Source: an uncultured Candidatus Saccharibacteria bacterium
Lineage (GTDB): Bacteria > Patescibacteriota > Minisyncoccia > UBA6257 > GWB1-50-10
Direction: 5' to 3'
DNA: 35,118 nt
NCBI GenBank assembly: GCA_964534105.1
Contig: CAZHOF010000001.1
Span: 13,126-48,243, forward strand
The stretch's first letter is position 1, and every line of letters begins with the position of its first letter. The notes below the pieces were generated by a model. It had not been told where the DNA came from and did no database searches. It was given only the letters and a program-made list of their open reading frames with translations. This document shows positions 19,075 through 33,853 of the stretch, in pieces. Made by a program: the position numbers and the translations under genes.

Positions 19075-19608
19075 ATGCCAAGACCGAGAGGAAGAAGAAT
19101 TTCAGAAGCAGCGAAGCGGAGCGAATTTCAAGATCGCGTTCTTGAGGTACGCCGGGTAACGCGAGTGACCGCAGGGGGAAAACGGTTTAGTTTTCGAGCT
19201 ACGGTTGTAGTAGGGGATCTGCGTGGCCGTGTAGGCGTTGGGACCGGAAAAGGACTTGATGTCGCCGAAGCCATTCGTAAAGGGAAACGACAAGGAGAGA
19301 AAAACATAATACATGTCCCTTTGGTTGAAAAGAGGACGATTCCGTTCGATGTCGAAGCAAAATTTTCCGCGGCAAGAATACGATTAAAACCTGCGCGTCT
19401 AAACCACGGTTTAATCGCCGGAGGAGCGTCGCGTGCGGTATTGGAGCTTGCCGGAGTGAAAGATATCTCCGGGAAAACCTTGGGAAGAACAAAGAATGCG
19501 CTGGCGAACGCGCGGGCAACGATAGTGGCACTGCAAAAATTCTCGGGAATTCCGCTGCGGGGAGACGATGTTAAAAAAGAACCCGAAATAAAGAAAGAAG
19601 CAGAGTAA
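19075..19608 (+). CDS. rpsE: 30S ribosomal protein S5
   Basis: RV.RVT.GGKRF.FRA.VVVGD..G.VG.G.GK, AGGA.RAVLE.AG..D. Confidence 0.96.
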   Translation: MPRPRGRRISEAAKRSEFQDRVLEVRRVTRVTAGGKRFSFRATVVVGDLRGRVGVGTGKGLDVAEAIRKGKRQGEKNIIHVPLVEKRTIPFDVEAKFSAARIRLKPARLNHGLIAGGASRAVLELAGVKDISGKTLGRTKNALANARATIVALQKFSGIPLRGDDVKKEPEIKKEAE

Positions 19609-19609
19609 C

Positions 19610-20041
19610 ATGCAGATACACGAACTAAGACCTAAAAAAAGCGCGCTTACCCGAAAAAAGAAACGAGTGGGACGAGGTGGGAAGCGCGGAGCATATTCAG
19701 GAAAGGGACAAAAGGGTCAGCGCTCCCGGGCAGGACATCGAATTCGGCCTGCGGAACGCGATCTTATTATGCTATTCCCGAAATTGCGGGGAGTTAAGAA
19801 TCGGAGGAAATCTCCGCGCGCTATCGTGATTAACGTTGGTGACTTGGATCGAATTTTTCCAAAGAAGGAAACAATTACGCCGAAAGAGTTAGTTGAAGCC
19901 AAAGTTATAAAAACAGAAAGGATCTCGGTAAAGATTTTAGGAGAGGGCGATGTGAAGCGGGCATTTACCGTTCAAGGAATTGTTCTCTCGGCGATTGCCC
20001 GGGAGAAAATCGAAAAAGCGGGCGGCTCCGTAAAGGAATAG
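19610..20041 (+). CDS. rplO: 50S ribosomal protein L15
   Basis: L.P......KK.RVGRG...G..SG.G.KGQ..R.G. Starts 1 nt after the rpsE stop. Confidence 0.95.
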   Translation: MQIHELRPKKSALTRKKKRVGRGGKRGAYSGKGQKGQRSRAGHRIRPAERDLIMLFPKLRGVKNRRKSPRAIVINVGDLDRIFPKKETITPKELVEAKVIKTERISVKILGEGDVKRAFTVQGIVLSAIAREKIEKAGGSVKE

Positions 20042-26850: not shown

Positions 26851-27093
26851 ATGCACTTTGTTTATGTGTTGAAAAGTACACGGGATGGCCATCGCTATGT
26901 TGGAAGCGCGAATGACGTGGAACGCCGTTTTCGAGAACACCAGCGCGGCAAAGTAAGCTCGACAGAACAGCGGCGACCCCTTATGCTTCTATACAGCGAG
27001 TGCTATACCACTCAAAAAGAAGCACTACAGCGGGAACAGTTTCTGAAGTCCGGAAAGGGGAGACAGTGGCTTGATGCAAGAGGGATACGGTAG
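26851..27093 (+). CDS. Small GIY-YIG nuclease family protein (YhbQ/UPF0213-like)
   Basis: 80 aa: FVYVLKS..DGHRYVGSANDVERRFREHQRGK...T...RP..LLYSE.Y....EAL.RE..LKS. Confidence 0.8.
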   Translation: MHFVYVLKSTRDGHRYVGSANDVERRFREHQRGKVSSTEQRRPLMLLYSECYTTQKEALQREQFLKSGKGRQWLDARGIR

Positions 27094-27126
27094 CTCGCCA
27101 AAGAGCAATAACAGAAAGTTGTAATA

Positions 27127-27161
27127 GGCCCCGTAGCTCAGTTGGTAGAGCACTACATTTG
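27127..27161 (+). pseudogene. tRNA-Ala-like 5' half, ending inside the anticodon
   Basis: GGCCCCG-TA-GCTC-AGTTGGTA-GAGC-A-CTACA-TTTG, then non-tRNA sequence TCCCGAT. Confidence 0.7.
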
Positions 27162-27211
27162 TCCCGATATTGTTCAAATTTTTCAAATTTGATTACAATA
27201 TCGAGGATCCT

Positions 27212-27320
27212 CGATAACTTTGGTGGGCCCGTAGCTTAGTTGGTAGAGCGCCACATTTGCAATGTGGAGGTCACCGGTTCGAATCCGGTCGGGTCCACCA
27301 TGGGCCCACCAAAGTTATCG
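27212..27320. repeat. 19-nt perfect inverted repeat bracketing tRNA-Ala
   Basis: CGATAACTTTGGTGGGCCC (27212-27230, including the first 6 nt of the tRNA) and GGGCCCACCAAAGTTATCG (27302-27320). Confidence 0.9.
27225..27300 (+). tRNA. tRNA-Ala(TGC), CCA encoded
   Basis: GGGCCCG-TA-GCTT-AGTTGGTA-GAGC-G-CCACA-TTTGCAA-TGTGG-AGGTC-ACCGG-TTCGAAT-CCGGT-CGGGTCC-A-CCA. G3:U70 is present. Confidence 0.95.
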
Positions 27321-27323
27321 GGA

Positions 27324-27361
27324 CAATGTAGGGGTCGCGGGTTCGAATCCCGCTCGGTCCA
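27324..27361 (+). pseudogene. tRNA-Ala-like 3' half (partner of 27127-27161)
   Basis: CAA-TGTAG-GGGTC-GCGGG-TTCGAAT-CCCGC-TCGGTCC-A. TGTAG complements CTACA of the 5' half. The acceptor complementarity is degraded. Confidence 0.7.
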
Positions 27362-27427
27362 CAAACGAGGATACTGCGTTCATTATCTCGGGATCGCGGA
27401 TAACATAATCGCATTACTCCTTGTTCT

Positions 27428-27472
27428 TCGGGACAATGTGGAGGTCACCGGTTCGAATCCGGTCGGGTCCAC
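27428..27472 (+). pseudogene. Orphan tRNA-Ala 3' half preceded by a TCGGGA junction
   Basis: 27434-27472 is identical to 27260-27298 of the intact gene (39 nt). It is preceded by TCGGGA, as at 27318. Confidence 0.8.
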
Positions 27473-27509
27473 ACGAATCACTTTAAACTACGCGTATCTG
27501 GAGCAGTCT

Positions 27510-27920
27510 ATGAAACTCTATATAACAGCAAGTTTTAAAAACGGAGAAAACGAGAAAGAAATTGAACGCCTTTGCGCGCTTGTGAAAGAAGCTGGATTTG
27601 AAGATTTTTGTTTTATCCGTGACGTTGAAAATTATCAAAAACTTTTTGATAACCCGCAGGAATTGATGCAACGTGCGAAGGAGGAGATTGAAAAGTCAGA
27701 CGGATTGCTTATTGATGTGACTGAGAAACCGACGGGGAGGGCAATAGAAGCAGGAATTGCATTTGCGCTAGGAAAGAAGATTGTTGTCATAGCAAAAAGT
27801 GGGACGAAGATTAAAGATACTACGAGGGGAATCACTGACATTGTGGTTGAATACAATGTCATTGACGATATTGTCCAGCCATTACAAGAATGGCTTTCAG
27901 GGATAGAAACATCTCAATAA
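27510..27920 (+). CDS. Nucleoside 2-deoxyribosyltransferase-like protein
   Basis: 136 aa. MKLYITASF.., LLIDVTEKPTGRAIEAGIAFALGKKIVVI matches the PF05014-type acidic-residue/Gly-rich core. GGAG lies 6 nt upstream of the ATG. The annotated 27240 start only reads through tRNA sequence. Confidence 0.7.
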   Translation: MKLYITASFKNGENEKEIERLCALVKEAGFEDFCFIRDVENYQKLFDNPQELMQRAKEEIEKSDGLLIDVTEKPTGRAIEAGIAFALGKKIVVIAKSGTKIKDTTRGITDIVVEYNVIDDIVQPLQEWLSGIETSQ

Positions 27921-28012
27921 TTTGGTTCTAATTAACACACATGAAGTCAAAAAAGTATCTTAATAAAAATCGGATTCAAATAGGAGCGGGGGCGGAAGAA
28001 CATCCGAGGTAA

Positions 28013-28021
28013 TGGTATAAT
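28013..28021 (+). promoter_or_regulatory. Extended -10 element upstream of the zinc-ribbon operon
   Basis: TGGTATAAT, 32 nt upstream of the 28054 ATG. Confidence 0.4.
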
Positions 28022-28053
28022 GTATATTACACACACTAATACACGACAAAACT

Positions 28054-28533
28054 ATGTTTTGCTCAAATTGCGGTACGAAAGTTAAAGGAAAGGCGAGTTT
28101 TTGTCAAAGTTGCGGCAAATCAATCGACAAGGGAAAAGCAACTACTTTAGCGGAAAGAACGGTGTCCGAATTTATGATCGCAAATCTTTTCAAGGGAAGA
28201 ATTGGGAGAAAGGAATGGGTATTGGGAATTATTCTTTTGATTGGAATGTTGTTTGCAACCGCCTTTCTTATTGCAAGTATTTCTGAATATCTTATTTTAT
28301 TAATTCCATTGTACATTGTTTATGCAGTTTTTCTTTTTTCACTTCATATTCGCCGCCTTCACGATTTGAACTATTCTGGGTGGGTTGCGTTAGTTTTTAG
28401 CATTCCAATAGCTAACTTGATATTACTTCTTATTTTAACCCTCTCTAGTGGAAAAGAGATAGAGAATAGATATGGGAAGAAGCTAGACCCGAACGCGAAA
28501 TTATTAGACGTTTTATTAGGCAAAGTGAATTAG
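28054..28533 (+). CDS. Zinc-ribbon / DUF805-like inner membrane protein
   Basis: N-terminal MFCSNCG..FCQSCG. GRIGRKEW, RRLHDLNYSGW and 3-4 TM helices are typical of DUF805 (YhaH-like). Confidence 0.7.
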   Translation: MFCSNCGTKVKGKASFCQSCGKSIDKGKATTLAERTVSEFMIANLFKGRIGRKEWVLGIILLIGMLFATAFLIASISEYLILLIPLYIVYAVFLFSLHIRRLHDLNYSGWVALVFSIPIANLILLLILTLSSGKEIENRYGKKLDPNAKLLDVLLGKVN

Positions 28534-28546
28534 TTAGATAGGCACC

Positions 28547-29233
28547 ATGTTCTGTACTAATTGTGGAGATAAGGTTAACGATGGAATTAAATTCTGCGGG
28601 AAATGTGGCAAAATTATTATCAATAAAAGCACAAACTTAAATTCTAGACGGACATCACCGCCCACCTATGAAAGAATAGAAAATTCAATATCTTACCTCC
28701 CCCAAATAATTCACGAGAAATCGAATCGGAGGTTATATTTTGGATATTTGCTGCTTACTGTGGCAGTTATTTTTTTCATTTATCAGATTAATTATGTTGC
28801 AATCGGACTCACTTGTTGGGGCGGATTTCTTGTTTTTAGACGGATAACTGATCGTGAAGACAAAAAGCATTATGCTTATCAGATTACCTCCTTAGCTGGA
28901 TATCAAAATATAAATGATTTATCGAAAGATTTTATTAGGACTGAAAAAGTTGGAATTGTAAAAATCGGTAGTTATAAGTTAAATAGCGATTTTCTTTCAA
29001 GGGAAAAGTTTTTCTCATATGAAATATATCCGATGTCGCAAATGTTCTGGGCCTATAAGAAGATCATTAGGAAAAGTATTAATTTTATACCAGTAGGCAA
29101 GGACTATGAGATAGTTATGCATTTCAAGCCAGATAAGGTAGTGTCCATTAAAGAACCGGAGAAAAGCACTGATCGGCATCTCATGCTTTTAATCCATCTT
29201 TGTCCAGAGGCAGAATTTGGATACGCGAAATAA
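28547..29233 (+). CDS. Zinc-ribbon membrane protein with an unknown C-terminal domain
   Basis: N-terminal MFCTNCG..FCGKCG, two hydrophobic helices, and a C-terminal domain of about 130 aa with no motif I recognise. Confidence 0.6.
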   Translation: MFCTNCGDKVNDGIKFCGKCGKIIINKSTNLNSRRTSPPTYERIENSISYLPQIIHEKSNRRLYFGYLLLTVAVIFFIYQINYVAIGLTCWGGFLVFRRITDREDKKHYAYQITSLAGYQNINDLSKDFIRTEKVGIVKIGSYKLNSDFLSREKFFSYEIYPMSQMFWAYKKIIRKSINFIPVGKDYEIVMHFKPDKVVSIKEPEKSTDRHLMLLIHLCPEAEFGYAK

Positions 29234-29249
29234 TCTTTTATAATCAGAC

Positions 29250-30305
29250 ATGTTTTGTAAACATTGTGGAGAAAAAATAAAAAAAAGTAATAAGTTTTGT
29301 AATTTCTGCGGTCAGGCTCTATTGCCAACAACACTAACAGAACAAAAGAGAGATTGGAATGGTTATCTTTGGAAAGCTCTACTTGTATCAGCAATTGTAA
29401 TAGCGATTGGCTTATATGCATTTATTTACTTTAGCGATCACGCTTCTGAAGATGATCACGCTTCTTCTCTTTTAAATGAGCTTGATCCTAATATTCAACC
29501 AGTCGGTTATTTCGATGATCCTAATGTTTTTGAATCAGAAAGTATCAGCGACGAGGAATGGTTTTCGCACCTTCAATATTATGAAATTGAAGATATTGCT
29601 CCCATATATGACAAATCTAGATTTCAATTCCCAAACCAGAGGGAAATACTTAGCTCAGTAGTAAAAATAGTTTGTGAAGATTCGAATTATTTTTATTATG
29701 GTTCAGGAACTAATTTTGATAGCGGTGGCTACGTTCTTACAAACTTACACGTTTTAGAAAACATAAACGGGAGATGTGTTATAGGATTTCCCGATCCCGA
29801 ATCCGGTTTAATAAAAGAAGCGTATTGGGCAGCTCCAATTATTGATAAAGACAACATCACTGGCCATGACTTAGCTTACTTATCCGTGGAGGACCCAGTA
29901 TTTGATGAGAGTTATAATATTTATGGGTATTATGACAAAATATTCGACGGTTCATTTTCTTATTTTGAAATAACAGAAGATTGTTCTAGTACCCCTACCC
30001 AACTTGGAGATAGATTATTCGTGGTTGGTTACCCACCTCTCAGTGGGGGAGCACTCACAATTACTGACGGTCTGGTGAGTAGTTTGTATTCTCGAGATGG
30101 TTACATCATTACTTCAGCGAAAATTGTTAGTGGTAATTCTGGCGGATTAGCTGTAGATGGACAAGGTTGTTATGTGGGGGTGCCAACAGCTGTATATTAT
30201 GAAGAGGGAGATGAGTATCTTGGCGAAATTATTGATGCAGAATTTGTTGACGAATTTGATGAGGCTGTTACAGATGATATCGACGAGTATTTTAATTCTC
30301 TGTAG
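29250..30305 (+). CDS. Zinc-ribbon-anchored trypsin-like serine protease
   Basis: N-terminal MFCKHCG..FCNFCG and one TM helix. The protease core has GSGTNFDSGGYVLTNLHV (His), GHDLAYL (Asp) and GNSGGLAVD (Ser). The C-terminal tail is acidic. Confidence 0.75.
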   Translation: MFCKHCGEKIKKSNKFCNFCGQALLPTTLTEQKRDWNGYLWKALLVSAIVIAIGLYAFIYFSDHASEDDHASSLLNELDPNIQPVGYFDDPNVFESESISDEEWFSHLQYYEIEDIAPIYDKSRFQFPNQREILSSVVKIVCEDSNYFYYGSGTNFDSGGYVLTNLHVLENINGRCVIGFPDPESGLIKEAYWAAPIIDKDNITGHDLAYLSVEDPVFDESYNIYGYYDKIFDGSFSYFEITEDCSSTPTQLGDRLFVVGYPPLSGGALTITDGLVSSLYSRDGYIITSAKIVSGNSGGLAVDGQGCYVGVPTAVYYEEGDEYLGEIIDAEFVDEFDEAVTDDIDEYFNSL

Positions 30306-30330
30306 GCCTATCTGCCCCTAAACCTAAGGG

Positions 30331-30367
30331 AATAAATGACTCAACCGGTTGAGTCATTTATTTTTCT
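30331..30367. terminator. Strong bidirectional intrinsic terminator
   Basis: 32-nt perfect palindrome AATAAATGACTCAACC/GGTTGAGTCATTTATT, followed by TTTTT. Confidence 0.8.
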
Positions 30368-30523
30368 GTCGCATTTCCTCATCACGGGCGGCGAGGCAAT
30401 CTTAGTTTTTGCTCAATCGCGGCAGAATTCCTACCCCCGATCTTCTCGTCGCGCCCGGCGGGTGTCCGGCCAAGCCACGAAGCAGTAAGGCATACTACTT
30501 ATGCATAGTAATCACTTTCTACG

Positions 30524-30532
30524 TGTTATAAT
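30524..30532 (+). promoter_or_regulatory. Extended -10 element upstream of the four-gene operon
   Basis: TGTTATAAT, 73 nt upstream of the 30606 ATG. Confidence 0.4.
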
Positions 30533-30605
30533 GTCCATAATAAGAAAAAACTGAGCAGTTTCGGCAAGAAAAGGGGCTCTTGCAAGACAAATTCTCCAAA
30601 AAGCT

Positions 30606-31604
30606 ATGTCTATATCTGAAAAATTACAAACTAGTGCGCTCGCTACAATCACGGCTCTCACTGTGCCGGTAATACTGCTGAATTTACTCGGCGGGATTGT
30701 GTCGGGTACCTGGTTAGCTATTTTAGGCGAATGGGGCGAAATAATCAGGGGCATAATCTTTTTTGTAGCGTCTGGTTTCGCTGTTTCTTTTGCCCTTATG
30801 CCCAGCTTGCTTTTTGCCGGACCTGCGGCAATAGCAATGGAGCGCGGTAAAAAGATTCTCGGAGCATTGTTTGGCTCGCTTAGCATACTTTATACCGTCG
30901 CCCTGATTACAGTGTGGTGTATTTGGGTCATGTGGCTTTTTGTGAGTTCTGCGGCTGAAAGCTCACTTATCCCACTATTGTTTTGGTCGTATGGCGTTGC
31001 CCTCGGGCCTTGGATGTGGCTTGCACAAAAAGATCAACAGGGCGGTGGAAATGAATTTTCGATACTCACGACATTTTTTGCACAAGCGGCATATATTTTG
31101 GGAATGATAATGTTTTTCTTTAATGCAACACTTGGAACTATTGCCGTAATATTTGGAATAATTATGCTTTCTGGTGCAATCTTCCAAATGATAATAGTGT
31201 TTGGCGGAGAAATGAAAAAATCGTTTGCTTCAAAAGATATTAAGGAAGCATTGGTAATTTTAGATGAAATAGGACGAACCATCGGCGGATCAGGTTTTGA
31301 TCTAGTACGGGAGCCAGTTGAAAAGTATCTTGTTTCTCATGGCAAGGAATACAAAGAAACCGTAAGTGAAACCTCCGCCCGCCAATGGGTTTATTCCGCC
31401 GTTGCCAATACTGCCGGAGATTTTATGGAAAGCGGACACTATCATATTTATCGTGGTGTGCTCAACCCAATGGGGCCGGGCGGAGACTTATTAAAACTCT
31501 TCGATAGTACGATTGATGAGCTTGTCAAAATGGGAGCATTGGAAGCGGAAAATGCGAAGAAAGAAAAAGCACGGCTCCGAAAGAATATGGACCAAATGGG
31601 ATAA
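30606..31604 (+). CDS. Polytopic membrane protein with a soluble C-terminal domain (unknown family)
   Basis: 332 aa with about 6 hydrophobic helices in the first 200 aa. The C-terminal region is soluble (GHYHIYRGVLNPMGPGGDLL). Confidence 0.65.
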   Translation: MSISEKLQTSALATITALTVPVILLNLLGGIVSGTWLAILGEWGEIIRGIIFFVASGFAVSFALMPSLLFAGPAAIAMERGKKILGALFGSLSILYTVALITVWCIWVMWLFVSSAAESSLIPLLFWSYGVALGPWMWLAQKDQQGGGNEFSILTTFFAQAAYILGMIMFFFNATLGTIAVIFGIIMLSGAIFQMIIVFGGEMKKSFASKDIKEALVILDEIGRTIGGSGFDLVREPVEKYLVSHGKEYKETVSETSARQWVYSAVANTAGDFMESGHYHIYRGVLNPMGPGGDLLKLFDSTIDELVKMGALEAENAKKEKARLRKNMDQMG

Positions 31605-31607
31605 AAC

Positions 31608-32585
31608 ATGCCGAAATCAAATCGAGAAAAACTAAAAGAATTACAAACAACCCTCGAACAAATTAAACAGAGAGCTAATGAGATTGAACAAAAAATCAAC
31701 AACAGCCAAGTTTCTCTCGATCAAATTTCCCAACATAAAACGAGCGCGGAGCAGTGGCGCGGGGAAATTGAAACAATAAAGAACCAGTCGACAGAAGCCC
31801 GTGGCGAGATAGAAGCGCTAAAAGAAGAAATCGAGGAAACGAAAGATGAACTCACTGAAAAACTGAATGCGGTTGAAGTAAAGAAAGAAGACATTGATAA
31901 ATTCTTCATCAAAATTTTTGGCGAGGAAGATGAACAAGGAAAACAATCAGGCGGACTTAGTACGAGATTAAATCAGAAAGAAAAAGAGGCAGATACTTTC
32001 CTTAACGCTCAAGAGAAAAAATACAAGGAGCTGTTTGAAAAGATAGAATCCCTATTACCGGGAGCAGCAAGTACGGGGCTAGCTAAGGCATATTATGACC
32101 AGAAAATTAGCTACAAATGGCCGATTAGGGCTTGGGCTATTGTTTTCGTTCTAGCGTTAGTAGGCGTATTTATAACTGGCCTATTAAGTTACGAAAATGG
32201 TATCAAACTTAGCTTCGAGGAACTTCTTAATGTTGAACAAGCCACATCAAAACTGATTGCTAGAATTCCATTTTTCTTTGCGCTTATTTGGTTGGCGGCA
32301 TTTAGCTCTAAGCAGTACAGACAGAATAAGAGATTAGAGCAGGAGTATGCTCATAAGGAAGTACTGGCGAAATCGTATCAGGGGTATAAGCGAGAACTTG
32401 AATCACAAGGGAAAACAGCGGCTGACAAAGAGATTATTGCTGCTTTACATAAAGTCCTAGTTGCCACAATAGCAAAAAATCCGAGCGAAATAATGGACGA
32501 TGGACGCAAAGACGATACGCCGTCAATTTGGACCAAACCGTTCAATTTAACAATATTTGGGAAAGATAAGAATGGACAAAAATAA
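31608..32585 (+). CDS. Coiled-coil protein with a 2-TM hairpin (unknown family)
   Basis: 325 aa. The first 150 aa or so are E/K/Q-rich. Then LPGAASTGLAKAYY and two helices (WAIVFVLALVGVFITGLL, IPFFFALIWLAAF), followed by a charged tail. Confidence 0.65.
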   Translation: MPKSNREKLKELQTTLEQIKQRANEIEQKINNSQVSLDQISQHKTSAEQWRGEIETIKNQSTEARGEIEALKEEIEETKDELTEKLNAVEVKKEDIDKFFIKIFGEEDEQGKQSGGLSTRLNQKEKEADTFLNAQEKKYKELFEKIESLLPGAASTGLAKAYYDQKISYKWPIRAWAIVFVLALVGVFITGLLSYENGIKLSFEELLNVEQATSKLIARIPFFFALIWLAAFSSKQYRQNKRLEQEYAHKEVLAKSYQGYKRELESQGKTAADKEIIAALHKVLVATIAKNPSEIMDDGRKDDTPSIWTKPFNLTIFGKDKNGQK

Positions 32586-32597
32586 CATACAAACCCC

Positions 32598-33521
32598 ATG
32601 ATTGTGCCTAAAAGGATAACCAAAAGGAAAATTACTATACCTATATCTAGTACCAATGGAGGAAATAGCGTTGCTCGGACAGACATTCAGTTTGGAAGTA
32701 AGAGTATTACTTTATTAATAGGGCTGGATTTACTGATTAGGATTCAGTACAAAGAACAACGCGAGAAAAAAGTTCTTAAAACACTTAAAGGTAAAATTCT
32801 TAGAGACAGAAGACTCTTCACGGCAAAAAACCGAAAGTCTACCCAAAAGTTTTTAGTTGCTGACCGAGAAATAAGAGAGTTGTTAAATAAGGACAAAAAG
32901 GAGTTAAATAAAAGAAATAAGTCAGAGTTCGAAGACTTTTCTAGTAATCTTAAGCGAAGACAGGATTTACTATTAAAAATAGCGAAGGATTTAAACTTCG
33001 ATGTTGTCCGATCGCATAAGGAATACATTTGTAAAAATTGCAACGGGTTTCGAGCAGGGCCTAGTCTTGCAGCAACAAGCAAACCAACATGCGCATTATG
33101 TAAAAACCTACTCAAAGGATTTAATATTCAGCAAATAGATACAGATGTGGCGGCTTATTTAACTGGTTATTGGTTAGAAGATTATGTTGCTAATATTCTA
33201 AGTAAAAATAATTGGGAAGCATGGTCATCTCCCACTCTATTGGTCTATGGTGTATCCGGAGCTTCTCATCAAGTTGATGTGCTAGCAATCAAAGACGGGC
33301 GAATTCTTATTATTGAGTGTAAAACAGGAGAATTCGCGCCAACTCAAGTTATGAATTTTTTAGGAAAGTACCATGATATCCGTTGCCATCAAGCGCTAGC
33401 TGTTTCAATTGGAAAGATTCACCCGGATGCCAGAAAAATAATAGAAAAGAATGTGGCGATAGATTATTATGATAATATAAATGACTATAAAAAATTAATT
33501 GAGAAAATTAAAAAATTATGA
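32598..33521 (+). CDS. Zn-ribbon plus PD-(D/E)xK (NERD/restriction-endonuclease-like) nuclease
   Basis: 307 aa with a K/R-rich N-terminus and CKNCNG...CALCKN. The core HQVDVLAIKDGRILIIECKTGE shows a D...ExK pattern. Confidence 0.65.
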   Translation: MIVPKRITKRKITIPISSTNGGNSVARTDIQFGSKSITLLIGLDLLIRIQYKEQREKKVLKTLKGKILRDRRLFTAKNRKSTQKFLVADREIRELLNKDKKELNKRNKSEFEDFSSNLKRRQDLLLKIAKDLNFDVVRSHKEYICKNCNGFRAGPSLAATSKPTCALCKNLLKGFNIQQIDTDVAAYLTGYWLEDYVANILSKNNWEAWSSPTLLVYGVSGASHQVDVLAIKDGRILIIECKTGEFAPTQVMNFLGKYHDIRCHQALAVSIGKIHPDARKIIEKNVAIDYYDNINDYKKLIEKIKKL

Positions 33522-33814
33522 CAAGAGTAACTAAGCAATCCGGCGTCTTGCCGTGGCAAGCAACAAATATTTCTACTGCACCATCTAAACCTGGAGTTTA
33601 TGCACTAAGGACTTCGACCGAAATAAGCAGTGTTGTTTACATAGGAAGTTCTGACAACATTGAAAGAAGGCTGAATGAGCATTTTTTGTTAGGCGATATT
33701 CCTGGGATTTCGTTCTTTGACTGGTATGAGGCCGACTCTATGGAAGCCGCACGAGAGCTTGAAAAAGAGTGGATAGTTAAACATTCTCCAAAATACAATA
33801 CTCGGGTTGGGTAA
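33518..33814 (+). CDS. GIY-YIG domain nuclease
   Basis: 98 aa: PGVYALR...VVYIGSSDNIERRLNEH, ..ARELEKEWI. Start overlaps the upstream stop (ATGA). Confidence 0.75.
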   Translation: MTRVTKQSGVLPWQATNISTAPSKPGVYALRTSTEISSVVYIGSSDNIERRLNEHFLLGDIPGISFFDWYEADSMEAARELEKEWIVKHSPKYNTRVG

Positions 33815-33853
33815 TGGTGATTTGATGATTTTGTGATGATATGATGTAGATAT

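Follow-up and report, generated by a model that had tools for sequence, protein, structure and literature searches.

A two-gene cassette of PD-(D/E)xK and GIY-YIG nucleases with a probable restriction-like defence role in a mosaic cargo island of a Candidatus Saccharibacteria bacterium

Do four closely packed genes in the genome of an uncultured Candidatus Saccharibacteria bacterium act as one defence system? The genes lie in a stretch of 35,118 nucleotides (nt) of contig CAZHOF010000001.1 (assembly GCA_964534105.1, positions 13,126 to 48,243 of the forward strand), which we call the window and to whose whole length all positions refer. They occupy 30.5-33.8 kb, the distal portion of a horizontally acquired cargo island of low guanine-plus-cytosine (GC) content. 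A previous reading of the sequence, the original prediction, had joined two membrane proteins (genes 1 and 2) and two nucleases (genes 3 and 4) into a candidate defence or conflict system. In the present study we propose instead that the island holds three modules, one of which, the gene 3-4 pair, probably encodes a methyltransferase-independent, restriction-like heteromeric defence nuclease. The cluster and the signals ahead of it are as follows.

30331-30367, forward strand: intrinsic-terminator-like hairpin, closing the upstream Zn-ribbon/trypsin gene
30524-30532, forward strand: TGTTATAAT, a possible extended -10 promoter for the cluster
30606-31604, forward strand: gene 1, 332 amino acids (aa)
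31608-32585, forward strand: gene 2, 325 aa
32598-33521, forward strand: gene 3, 307 aa
33518-33814, forward strand: gene 4, 98 aa

The list of open reading frames (ORFs), from which these gene coordinates are taken, agrees with the packing first described: a 3-nt gap between genes 1 and 2, a 12-nt gap between genes 2 and 3 and a 4-nt ATGA stop/start overlap between genes 3 and 4, all on the same strand. The four ORFs are real genes and not chance ORFs, because many diverged homologues keep their motifs. The strong terminator expected upstream is present as a perfect 16+16 palindrome (30331-30362) followed by a T run, with a folding energy of -17.4 kcal/mol and z = -3.9. The promoter-like sequence is also in its place, but as a consensus match only; a sigma-70 promoter scan did not report it because it has no -35 element. 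The start of the NUDIX gene follows 39 nt downstream of gene 4. The four genes may well be co-transcribed in this genome.

The comparison with other genomes separates them. All window proteins were searched by tblastn against 97 foreign loci, by which we mean loci from other genomes or metagenomes (labelled L###); the sample for gene 1 came from 43 GTDB species genomes and context look-ups, that for gene 2 from look-ups and 18 IMG/VR loci, and that for gene 3 from 16 metagenome loci and look-ups. Relatives of gene 1 alone were found in 46 of the 97 loci, of gene 2 alone in 25, of genes 3 and 4 together in 20 and of gene 3 alone in four (one contig ending after gene 3, and three distant relatives at 28-31% identity). 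Mixed loci numbered zero: nowhere among the 97 did a relative of gene 1 or gene 2 lie near genes 3/4 or near each other. Only genes 3 and 4 are conserved as neighbours. The claim that the four genes are a single system thus fails on the ground that the original prediction had itself named, a gene order conserved in no other genome, and its logic of a membrane sensor plus nuclease effectors is left without comparative support. The genes are adjacent only in this genome, and the four-gene "system" is not a real unit; very probably we are dealing with a mosaic of three unrelated modules, namely gene 1, gene 2 and the gene 3-4 pair. Operon-like packing within a cargo island does not amount to a functional system, and here comparative genomics has split an apparent one.

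The pair, on the other hand, holds together. In every one of the 20 foreign loci that carry a close gene 3 relative and downstream DNA, a gene 4 relative comes next, at a distance of 0-23 nt and mostly with the same 4-nt overlap, and the identities of the two proteins to ours fall in parallel, from 77/75% (gene 3/gene 4) down to 51/42%. In blastn comparisons of loci with unrelated flanks, at 81-85% nucleotide identity, homology reached no further than 35 nt upstream of the gene 3 start codon and 60 nt downstream of the gene 4 stop. Since homology is confined to genes 3-4, the unit of transfer is a two-gene cassette of 1.2 kb, within which no recombinase is found. The family is very small, rare and patchy. 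It comprises 25 clusters (90% identity) among 5.8 billion proteins, and of 1.84 billion representatives 198 belong to it at E<=1e-3, a number that drops to 16 at E<=1e-30. Gene 3 had no match in viral, plasmid and phage collections, IMG/VR included.

Gene 3 carries the following two elements, in agreement with the CxxC...CxxC and D...ECK nuclease motifs that had been predicted for it.

33030-33101, forward strand: zinc ribbon, C145/C148/C165/C168, invariant in the alignment
33276-33323, forward strand: D227, E240 and K242 of the PD-(D/E)xK domain (residues ~181-307), Can2/Card1/Mrr-like

The four cysteines and D227...E240-C-K242 are invariant in 24 homologues. In Pfam the protein matches Mrr_cat (4.8e-5), Card1_endonuc (1.5e-4) and NERD (1.9e-4), Mrr_cat being the sole model over its cut-off (23.9 vs 21 bits). 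Its AlphaFold2 model (pLDDT 88.7) shows an N-terminal beta-meander, a two-helix hairpin resembling Rpr2 (residues 76-132), the zinc ribbon and an alpha/beta nuclease domain. The top Foldseek matches in the PDB are Can2, VC1899, Cdn1 and Card1 (E 1e-6 to 1e-5), with a probability of 1.00 for the nuclease domains of Can2/Card1; a profile search of the PDB returned Can2 at 0.023 and, weakly, Rpp21 of archaeal RNase P at 0.06, the latter over the hairpin and the zinc ribbon. The conserved motif, the Mrr_cat score and the fold place gene 3 in the PD-(D/E)xK nuclease superfamily. A CARF domain is absent: the N-terminus of the model is not Rossmann-like, and the Pfam and PADLOC matches cover the post-CARF part only, in PADLOC that of the Csx1/CARF-PDDEXK models. 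Distant relatives of gene 3 in L061-L063 (e.g. L062 6719-7783), 354 aa long and 28-31% identical, keep the zinc ribbon and the nuclease core, and the gene behind them is an unrelated one of 85 aa and not a GIY-YIG gene; the partner may therefore be exchangeable in the wider gene 3 family.

The GIY-YIG assignment of gene 4 is confirmed by Pfam (2.1e-9, 37.9 bits vs a cut-off of 22.6 bits), and together with the motifs this score puts the protein in the GIY-YIG nuclease superfamily. In 16 sequences G26-V-Y28, Y41-I-G, E82 and N94 are conserved, and an arginine is retained in one of three neighbouring alignment columns (R50/R51 in the window). Gene 4 aligns end to end with the N-terminal domain of UvrC (1yd6, E 3e-4), and weak homing-endonuclease matches were obtained in PHROG and NCBIfam. 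We rejected an identity as UvrC/Cho excinuclease. The 98-aa protein covers only positions ~5-95 of the 570-aa UvrC/Cho models, far under their cut-offs, and it has no UvrB-interacting region, no EndoV-like nuclease and no tandem helix-hairpin-helix domain, (HhH)2.

What might such a pair do? The cassette was found in 15 distinct contexts, and in six of them restriction-modification (R-M) genes are directly adjacent, which is a classic defence-island signature.

L104 and L048-50, upstream of the cassette: N6_N4 methyltransferase and a DUF6996/6997 protein
L053, upstream: helix-turn-helix (HTH) gene, methyltransferase and MvaI/BcnI restriction endonuclease
L060, downstream: methyltransferase convergent with a TaqI restriction endonuclease
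L074-76, downstream: methyltransferase and a PDDEXK_11-like gene
L058, downstream: FokI-cleavage-domain protein and MmeI_N protein
L052, upstream and divergent: LexA-Dam fusion

The fusion in L052 (1235-2770, reverse strand; 511 aa) joins a LexA DNA-binding domain, an S24 peptidase and a Dam-type (D12) methyltransferase, and it would be an unusual, SOS-cleavable methyltransferase. The adjacent methyltransferases are 24-28% identical to each other, vs 42-68% for gene 3, and most of them are already paired with a restriction endonuclease of their own (MvaI/BcnI, TaqI, DUF6996/7). Being mutually unrelated and mostly provided with their own endonuclease, they are therefore neighbours and not cognate partners. 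A methyltransferase is absent from the window island and from nine of the 15 contexts, and cas and cyclase genes were seen neither in the window nor around the cassette in the 15 contexts. That the pair is a classical type II R-M nuclease was rejected, since the methyltransferase is missing in most contexts and unrelated where present. Of the earlier description as defence-island-like, one part stands, with R-M genes beside the gene 3-4 pair and defence genes beside gene 2 relatives; the part that made one four-gene system of it does not.

The lack of a methyltransferase and the R-M neighbourhoods make a methyltransferase-independent, restriction-like defence nuclease the most likely role of the pair, and, judged by itself, a function in defence is slightly favoured. 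The translational coupling of the two genes suggests a stoichiometric complex of their products. Thus, we propose that they form a heteromeric nuclease, in which gene 3 would bind nucleic acid through the Rpr2-like hairpin and the zinc ribbon and would provide a PD-(D/E)xK active site of the Can2/Mrr type, while gene 4 would contribute a second, GIY-YIG active site. Acting together, the two sites may cleave both strands, or nick and then counter-nick, and the target may be type IV-like, that is, modification-dependent, or structure-specific.

Several observations weigh against this proposal. Nine of the 15 contexts lack a recognisable defence neighbour, and the genes found there are housekeeping ones (DnaJ/GNAT, PNPase, sigma-70) or unknown; the contexts are limited, moreover, to the contigs retrieved, many of which are short. 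No modification-reading domain was recognised in gene 3 (SRA, PUA, Mrr_N and DUF3427 were not detected). No system model of PADLOC-DB v2 matched beyond the domain level, just as the cluster had at first been reported to match no named system; the domain-level matches were the nuclease part of Csx1/CARF_PDDEXK, PDC-S02, the GIY motif of PDC-S14 and, for gene 2, coiled-coil noise. Finally, with spacing so tight and only one promoter-like site upstream, all four genes may yet be functionally coupled in this one lineage.

An alternative that deserves attention, unlikely as we hold it to be, is that genes 3-4 are a selfish cassette, homing-endonuclease-like or addiction-like, which is spread or retained by DNA cutting and brings no benefit to the host. 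It would account for a moved unit of two ORFs with almost no flanks and no internal recombinase. GIY-YIG is a classic homing-endonuclease fold, but gene 4 consists of the 98-aa catalytic domain and lacks the DNA-binding domains of GIY-YIG homing enzymes; the cassette does occupy unrelated intergenic positions, housekeeping flanks included, yet there is no homology among these insertion sites, and homing requires a conserved target. The R-M genes that are its frequent neighbours are themselves selfish and mobile. However, no relatives of the cassette were found in IMG/VR viral contigs or plasmids, and no antidote gene is present, as the addiction form would demand.

The likeness of gene 4 to the incision domain at the N-terminus of UvrC, its closest relation, brings to mind an accessory of DNA repair or recombination, for instance a split dual-incision or junction-resolving nuclease, which may mend R-M-linked damage. 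SLX1-SLX4 with MUS81-EME1 is a nick/counter-nick pair of different nuclease folds that recalls genes 3-4, and gene 3 has weak matches to the Holliday-junction resolvase Hjc (Pfam 0.0024, PHROG 3e-4), with Bax1 in its Foldseek list. Nevertheless, the family is extremely rare and patchy and not clade-wide, its contexts are variable, the GC content is low, and no UvrB-binding, helicase or other repair partner is conserved alongside; the neighbouring methyltransferases, besides, are of N6/N4 types with unrelated specificity. We consider a repair function very unlikely.

The view that all four genes belong to a single lineage-specific system, in which the two membrane proteins (genes 1 and 2) detect envelope or phage events and regulate the nucleases, is already largely refuted by the absence of co-occurrence in the foreign loci. 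The gaps of 3, 12 and -4 nt, the terminator and the promoter-like site ahead speak for it, and in one element elsewhere gene 2 is followed at 7 nt by a nuclease-fold gene, Exo_endo_phos. Every module has other partners elsewhere, however, and a cassette boundary falls within 35 nt of the gene 3 start. The island layout is indeed identical in five assemblies, four besides that of the window, but these come from the same organism and are therefore not independent. We regard such a system as highly improbable. Least probable is a toxin-antitoxin pair in which one protein neutralises the other, as a two-gene, translationally coupled, mobile cassette might suggest, since both proteins have complete catalytic motifs family-wide and neither resembles a known antitoxin or has a DNA-binding autoregulator domain.

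With the cassette set apart as a putative defence nuclease, genes 1 and 2 can be taken on their own terms. Gene 1 is all-helical, with a polytopic membrane part (residues 1-~205) and a soluble domain (~205-332) that bears an SGHYHIYRG motif. A hydropathy scan shows four broad hydrophobic blocks (7-41, 45-78, 83-118 and 151-203), which with the helices of the AlphaFold2 model amount to ~6-7 transmembrane (TM) helices and a helical C-terminal domain, much as had been anticipated (about six TM helices and a soluble C-terminal domain). Among 166 homologues the N- and C-terminal domains occur also as separate genes. No match was found by sequence in Pfam, NCBIfam, PHROGs, PADLOC or the PDB, and no PDB fold by Foldseek. 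The nearest relatives belong to different operons: one (84% identity) comes after an HTH gene and a 607-aa M48 peptidase, and another (76%) is the last gene of an HTH-led operon in an integrase/primase element, with DUF6804 next; a DUF6804 or DUF6804-like gene lies downstream of gene 1 relatives in L078/79, L007, L014 and L006. Gene 1 is thus an independent cargo gene of mobile elements, which partners with DUF6804 elsewhere and is not part of the nuclease cassette.

Gene 2 has the predicted architecture, a long N-terminal coiled coil followed by a TM hairpin (segments 170-197 and 214-234 by hydropathy), and strongly conserved motifs, IESLLPGATSxGLA and RLEQEYAHKE. Its 236 homologues come from bacteria and archaea, and relatives were found in 18 IMG/VR loci and on 34 plasmids, one of them an E. 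coli IncA plasmid where the gene is carried by a transposon; isolate phages gave no match. Matches to SMC, JetC and syntaxin, obtained by sequence in Pfam, NCBIfam, PHROGs, PADLOC and the PDB, were rejected as compositional noise of the coiled coil. The surroundings vary. The closest relative, at 87% identity, stands in an HTH-205-95-123-gene 2-Exo_endo_phos (EEP nuclease) array beside a large serine recombinase, one at 55% comes after a type III Mod-Res pair, and others stand alone in prophage contigs, often near integrases, or belong to other operons. In prophage contigs the gene directly after the gene 2 relative is one of four kinds in turn.

L087 6896-7933: AbiTii
L098 6176-7342: GmrSD_N
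L093 4269-5261: RelA/SpoT-like synthetase
L090 6894-7679: PIN-like protein

The neighbours seen in prophages and mobile elements thus comprise AbiTii, GmrSD_N, RelA/SpoT, PIN, type III R-M and EEP nuclease genes. Because the downstream gene varies among defence genes, the gene 2 family marks a variable defence hotspot. Gene 2 is independent cargo, a gene that stands by itself in prophages, plasmids and integrative elements, and it is probably a single-gene conflict or exclusion factor acting at the membrane.

The island that holds the three modules is distinguished by its composition, with a GC fraction of 0.34-0.40 over ~27.3-33.85 kb vs 0.47-0.49 in the flanks. Two look-ups with NUDIX variants for an empty site returned the same island in one case and no match in the other. 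Its limits and the repeats at its start are the following.

27300-33850, forward strand: low-GC cargo island, from the scarred tRNA-Ala locus to the gap between the gene 4 stop and the NUDIX start
27127-27161, 27324-27362 and 27434-27472: tRNA-Ala half-copies at the island start

The scrambled tRNA locus reported next to the cluster is borne out by these duplicated tRNA-Ala halves. The 3' half (27260-27298) is repeated at 27324-27362 (79%) and 27434-27472 (100%), a copy of the 5' half (89%) lies at 27127-27161, and the gene is bracketed by a perfect 19-nt inverted repeat (27212-27230 / 27302-27320). The scarred locus (27107-27478) looks like the att-site remnants of repeated integrations. Between tRNA-Ile and tRNA-Ala there is a second small GIY-YIG gene (26851-27093, 80 aa, Pfam 3.4e-16), which is unrelated to gene 4; a comparable 88-aa GIY-YIG gene adjoins a serine-recombinase element in L064. 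The proximal half of the island (27300-30305) codes for a nucleoside 2-deoxyribosyltransferase/SLOG-like protein and for three membrane proteins in a row, each with an N-terminal zinc ribbon (a DUF805 protein, an unknown one and a Trypsin_2 protease); in L060 three comparable Zn-ribbon membrane genes are found 2 kb away from the gene 3-4 cassette. Elsewhere in the window (19075-20041) S5 is followed after 1 nt by L15, without an intervening L30. This is a known trait of the candidate phyla radiation (CPR)/Patescibacteria and agrees with the taxonomy of the homologue carriers, which are mostly Patescibacteria; both make a CPR host likely.

Cargo modules with relatives of genes 3-4, of gene 2 or of gene 1 are bordered, in the related loci, by a conserved, GC-rich hairpin element. 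Its 13-bp stem shows compensatory changes at 5 of 10 pairs; the loop is G-rich, GGGGGTGTGGGGGG, and there is a GGAATTC core. The element was located as follows.

L049 2006-2108, L050, L054 1658-1755, L104 2430-2497 and L053: after gene 4
L053 2-94 and 3197-3294: two copies in this locus
L065 9-119 and 3495-3605, L064 6234-6344 and 9720-9791: around the gene 2 module, as inverted repeats of at least 72-119 nt
L006 1723-1874 and 3991-4142: two copies in this locus

A variant of the element is present next to gene 1 in L005/78-80 and L006, and in two cases it has large serine recombinases as neighbours. The copies often form long, perfect inverted repeats, some of them at contig ends (L053, L065 and L064), and the perfect repeats at contig ends could be partly an effect of assembly. 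The element may be the recombination site of a cassette system. It has no match in Rfam; in a comparison with integron attC sites we saw by eye no consistent GTTRRRY cores, and no IntI was seen. An nhmmer search of the window gave no copy at E<=10. A GC-rich spacer of ~150 nt (30368-30520), in an otherwise AT-rich island, separates the terminator from the promoter-like site of gene 1; its reverse strand has a weak and non-significant likeness to the element (GGGGGTAGGAATTC; the 12-mer GTCCGGCCAAGC is common with L104). For the part at 30395-30470 this likeness is weak only, and its folding is no better than that of shuffled sequences.

The hairpin-bounded cassettes of the related loci hint at a route by which such islands are assembled. 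A wider picture, in which genes 3-4 would be a new immune nuclease of CPR/Patescibacteria with a CARF-less core of the Can2 type, and would be, with gene 1-DUF6804 and the gene 2 module, among many cargo cassettes that a so far undescribed, hairpin-marked cassette system shuffles between genomes, is speculative, and we think it distinctly improbable. If the proposed role of the pair is true, a 1.2-kb methyltransferase-free cassette of two unrelated nuclease folds would represent a new minimal defence architecture, and it could provide a new kind of DNA-cutting reagent. Our literature search found no two-gene defence system of PD-(D/E)xK plus GIY-YIG, and nothing relevant for DUF6996/6997; we know of no two-subunit restriction enzyme that combines these folds. 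CPR/Patescibacteria have tiny genomes, mostly without CRISPR-Cas, and their protection is believed to come from simple innate defences (PMC12455944).

Among known systems, the best match in both structure and sequence to the nuclease domain of gene 3 is provided by Can2, Card1 and VC1899 (DUF1887), ancillary effectors of type III CRISPR, and the helical linker that precedes this domain in Can2/Card1 aligns with gene 3 too. These proteins, however, have a CARF domain that binds cyclic tetra-adenylate (cA4), in place of which gene 3 has the beta-meander, the helical hairpin and the zinc ribbon; gene 3 has, moreover, an obligate GIY-YIG partner that is not found with Can2/Card1, and no CRISPR-Cas or cyclase gene lies nearby. 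With Mrr-type and type IV enzymes, including the two-gene forms GmrSD and McrBC, the pair shares the Mrr_cat match, the lack of a methyltransferase of its own and a place beside R-M genes of type II/III; mrr itself adjoins hsd in the immigration control region of E. coli. In contrast to these enzymes, genes 3-4 have no recognised reader domain or NTPase, and their second subunit is a nuclease and not a specificity or motor protein. CMoRE, a GIY-YIG enzyme of type IV, is a single protein whose architecture is unrelated to that of genes 3-4 (PMC12923530).

On the side of gene 4, the N-terminal GIY-YIG domain of UvrC and Cho aligns with the full protein, which keeps the catalytic Tyr, Tyr, Arg, Glu and Asn; the UvrB-binding region, the EndoV-like nuclease and the HhH part are what gene 4 lacks, and it is mobile and rare where UvrC is universal. 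With homing endonucleases of the I-TevI type gene 4 has in common the catalytic fold and the compact mobile unit, but it comes without linker and DNA-binding domains, intron or conserved target, and it is not phage-borne. Closest in concept are the type IIT heterodimers (BbvCI, BsrDI/BtsI), which have two catalytic subunits with PD-(D/E)xK-type sites and cognate methyltransferases, and SLX1-SLX4/MUS81-EME1. Neither has any sequence relationship to genes 3-4 beyond the folds, and yet both share with them the principle that two distinct active sites, each presumably cutting one strand, are carried on two polypeptides.

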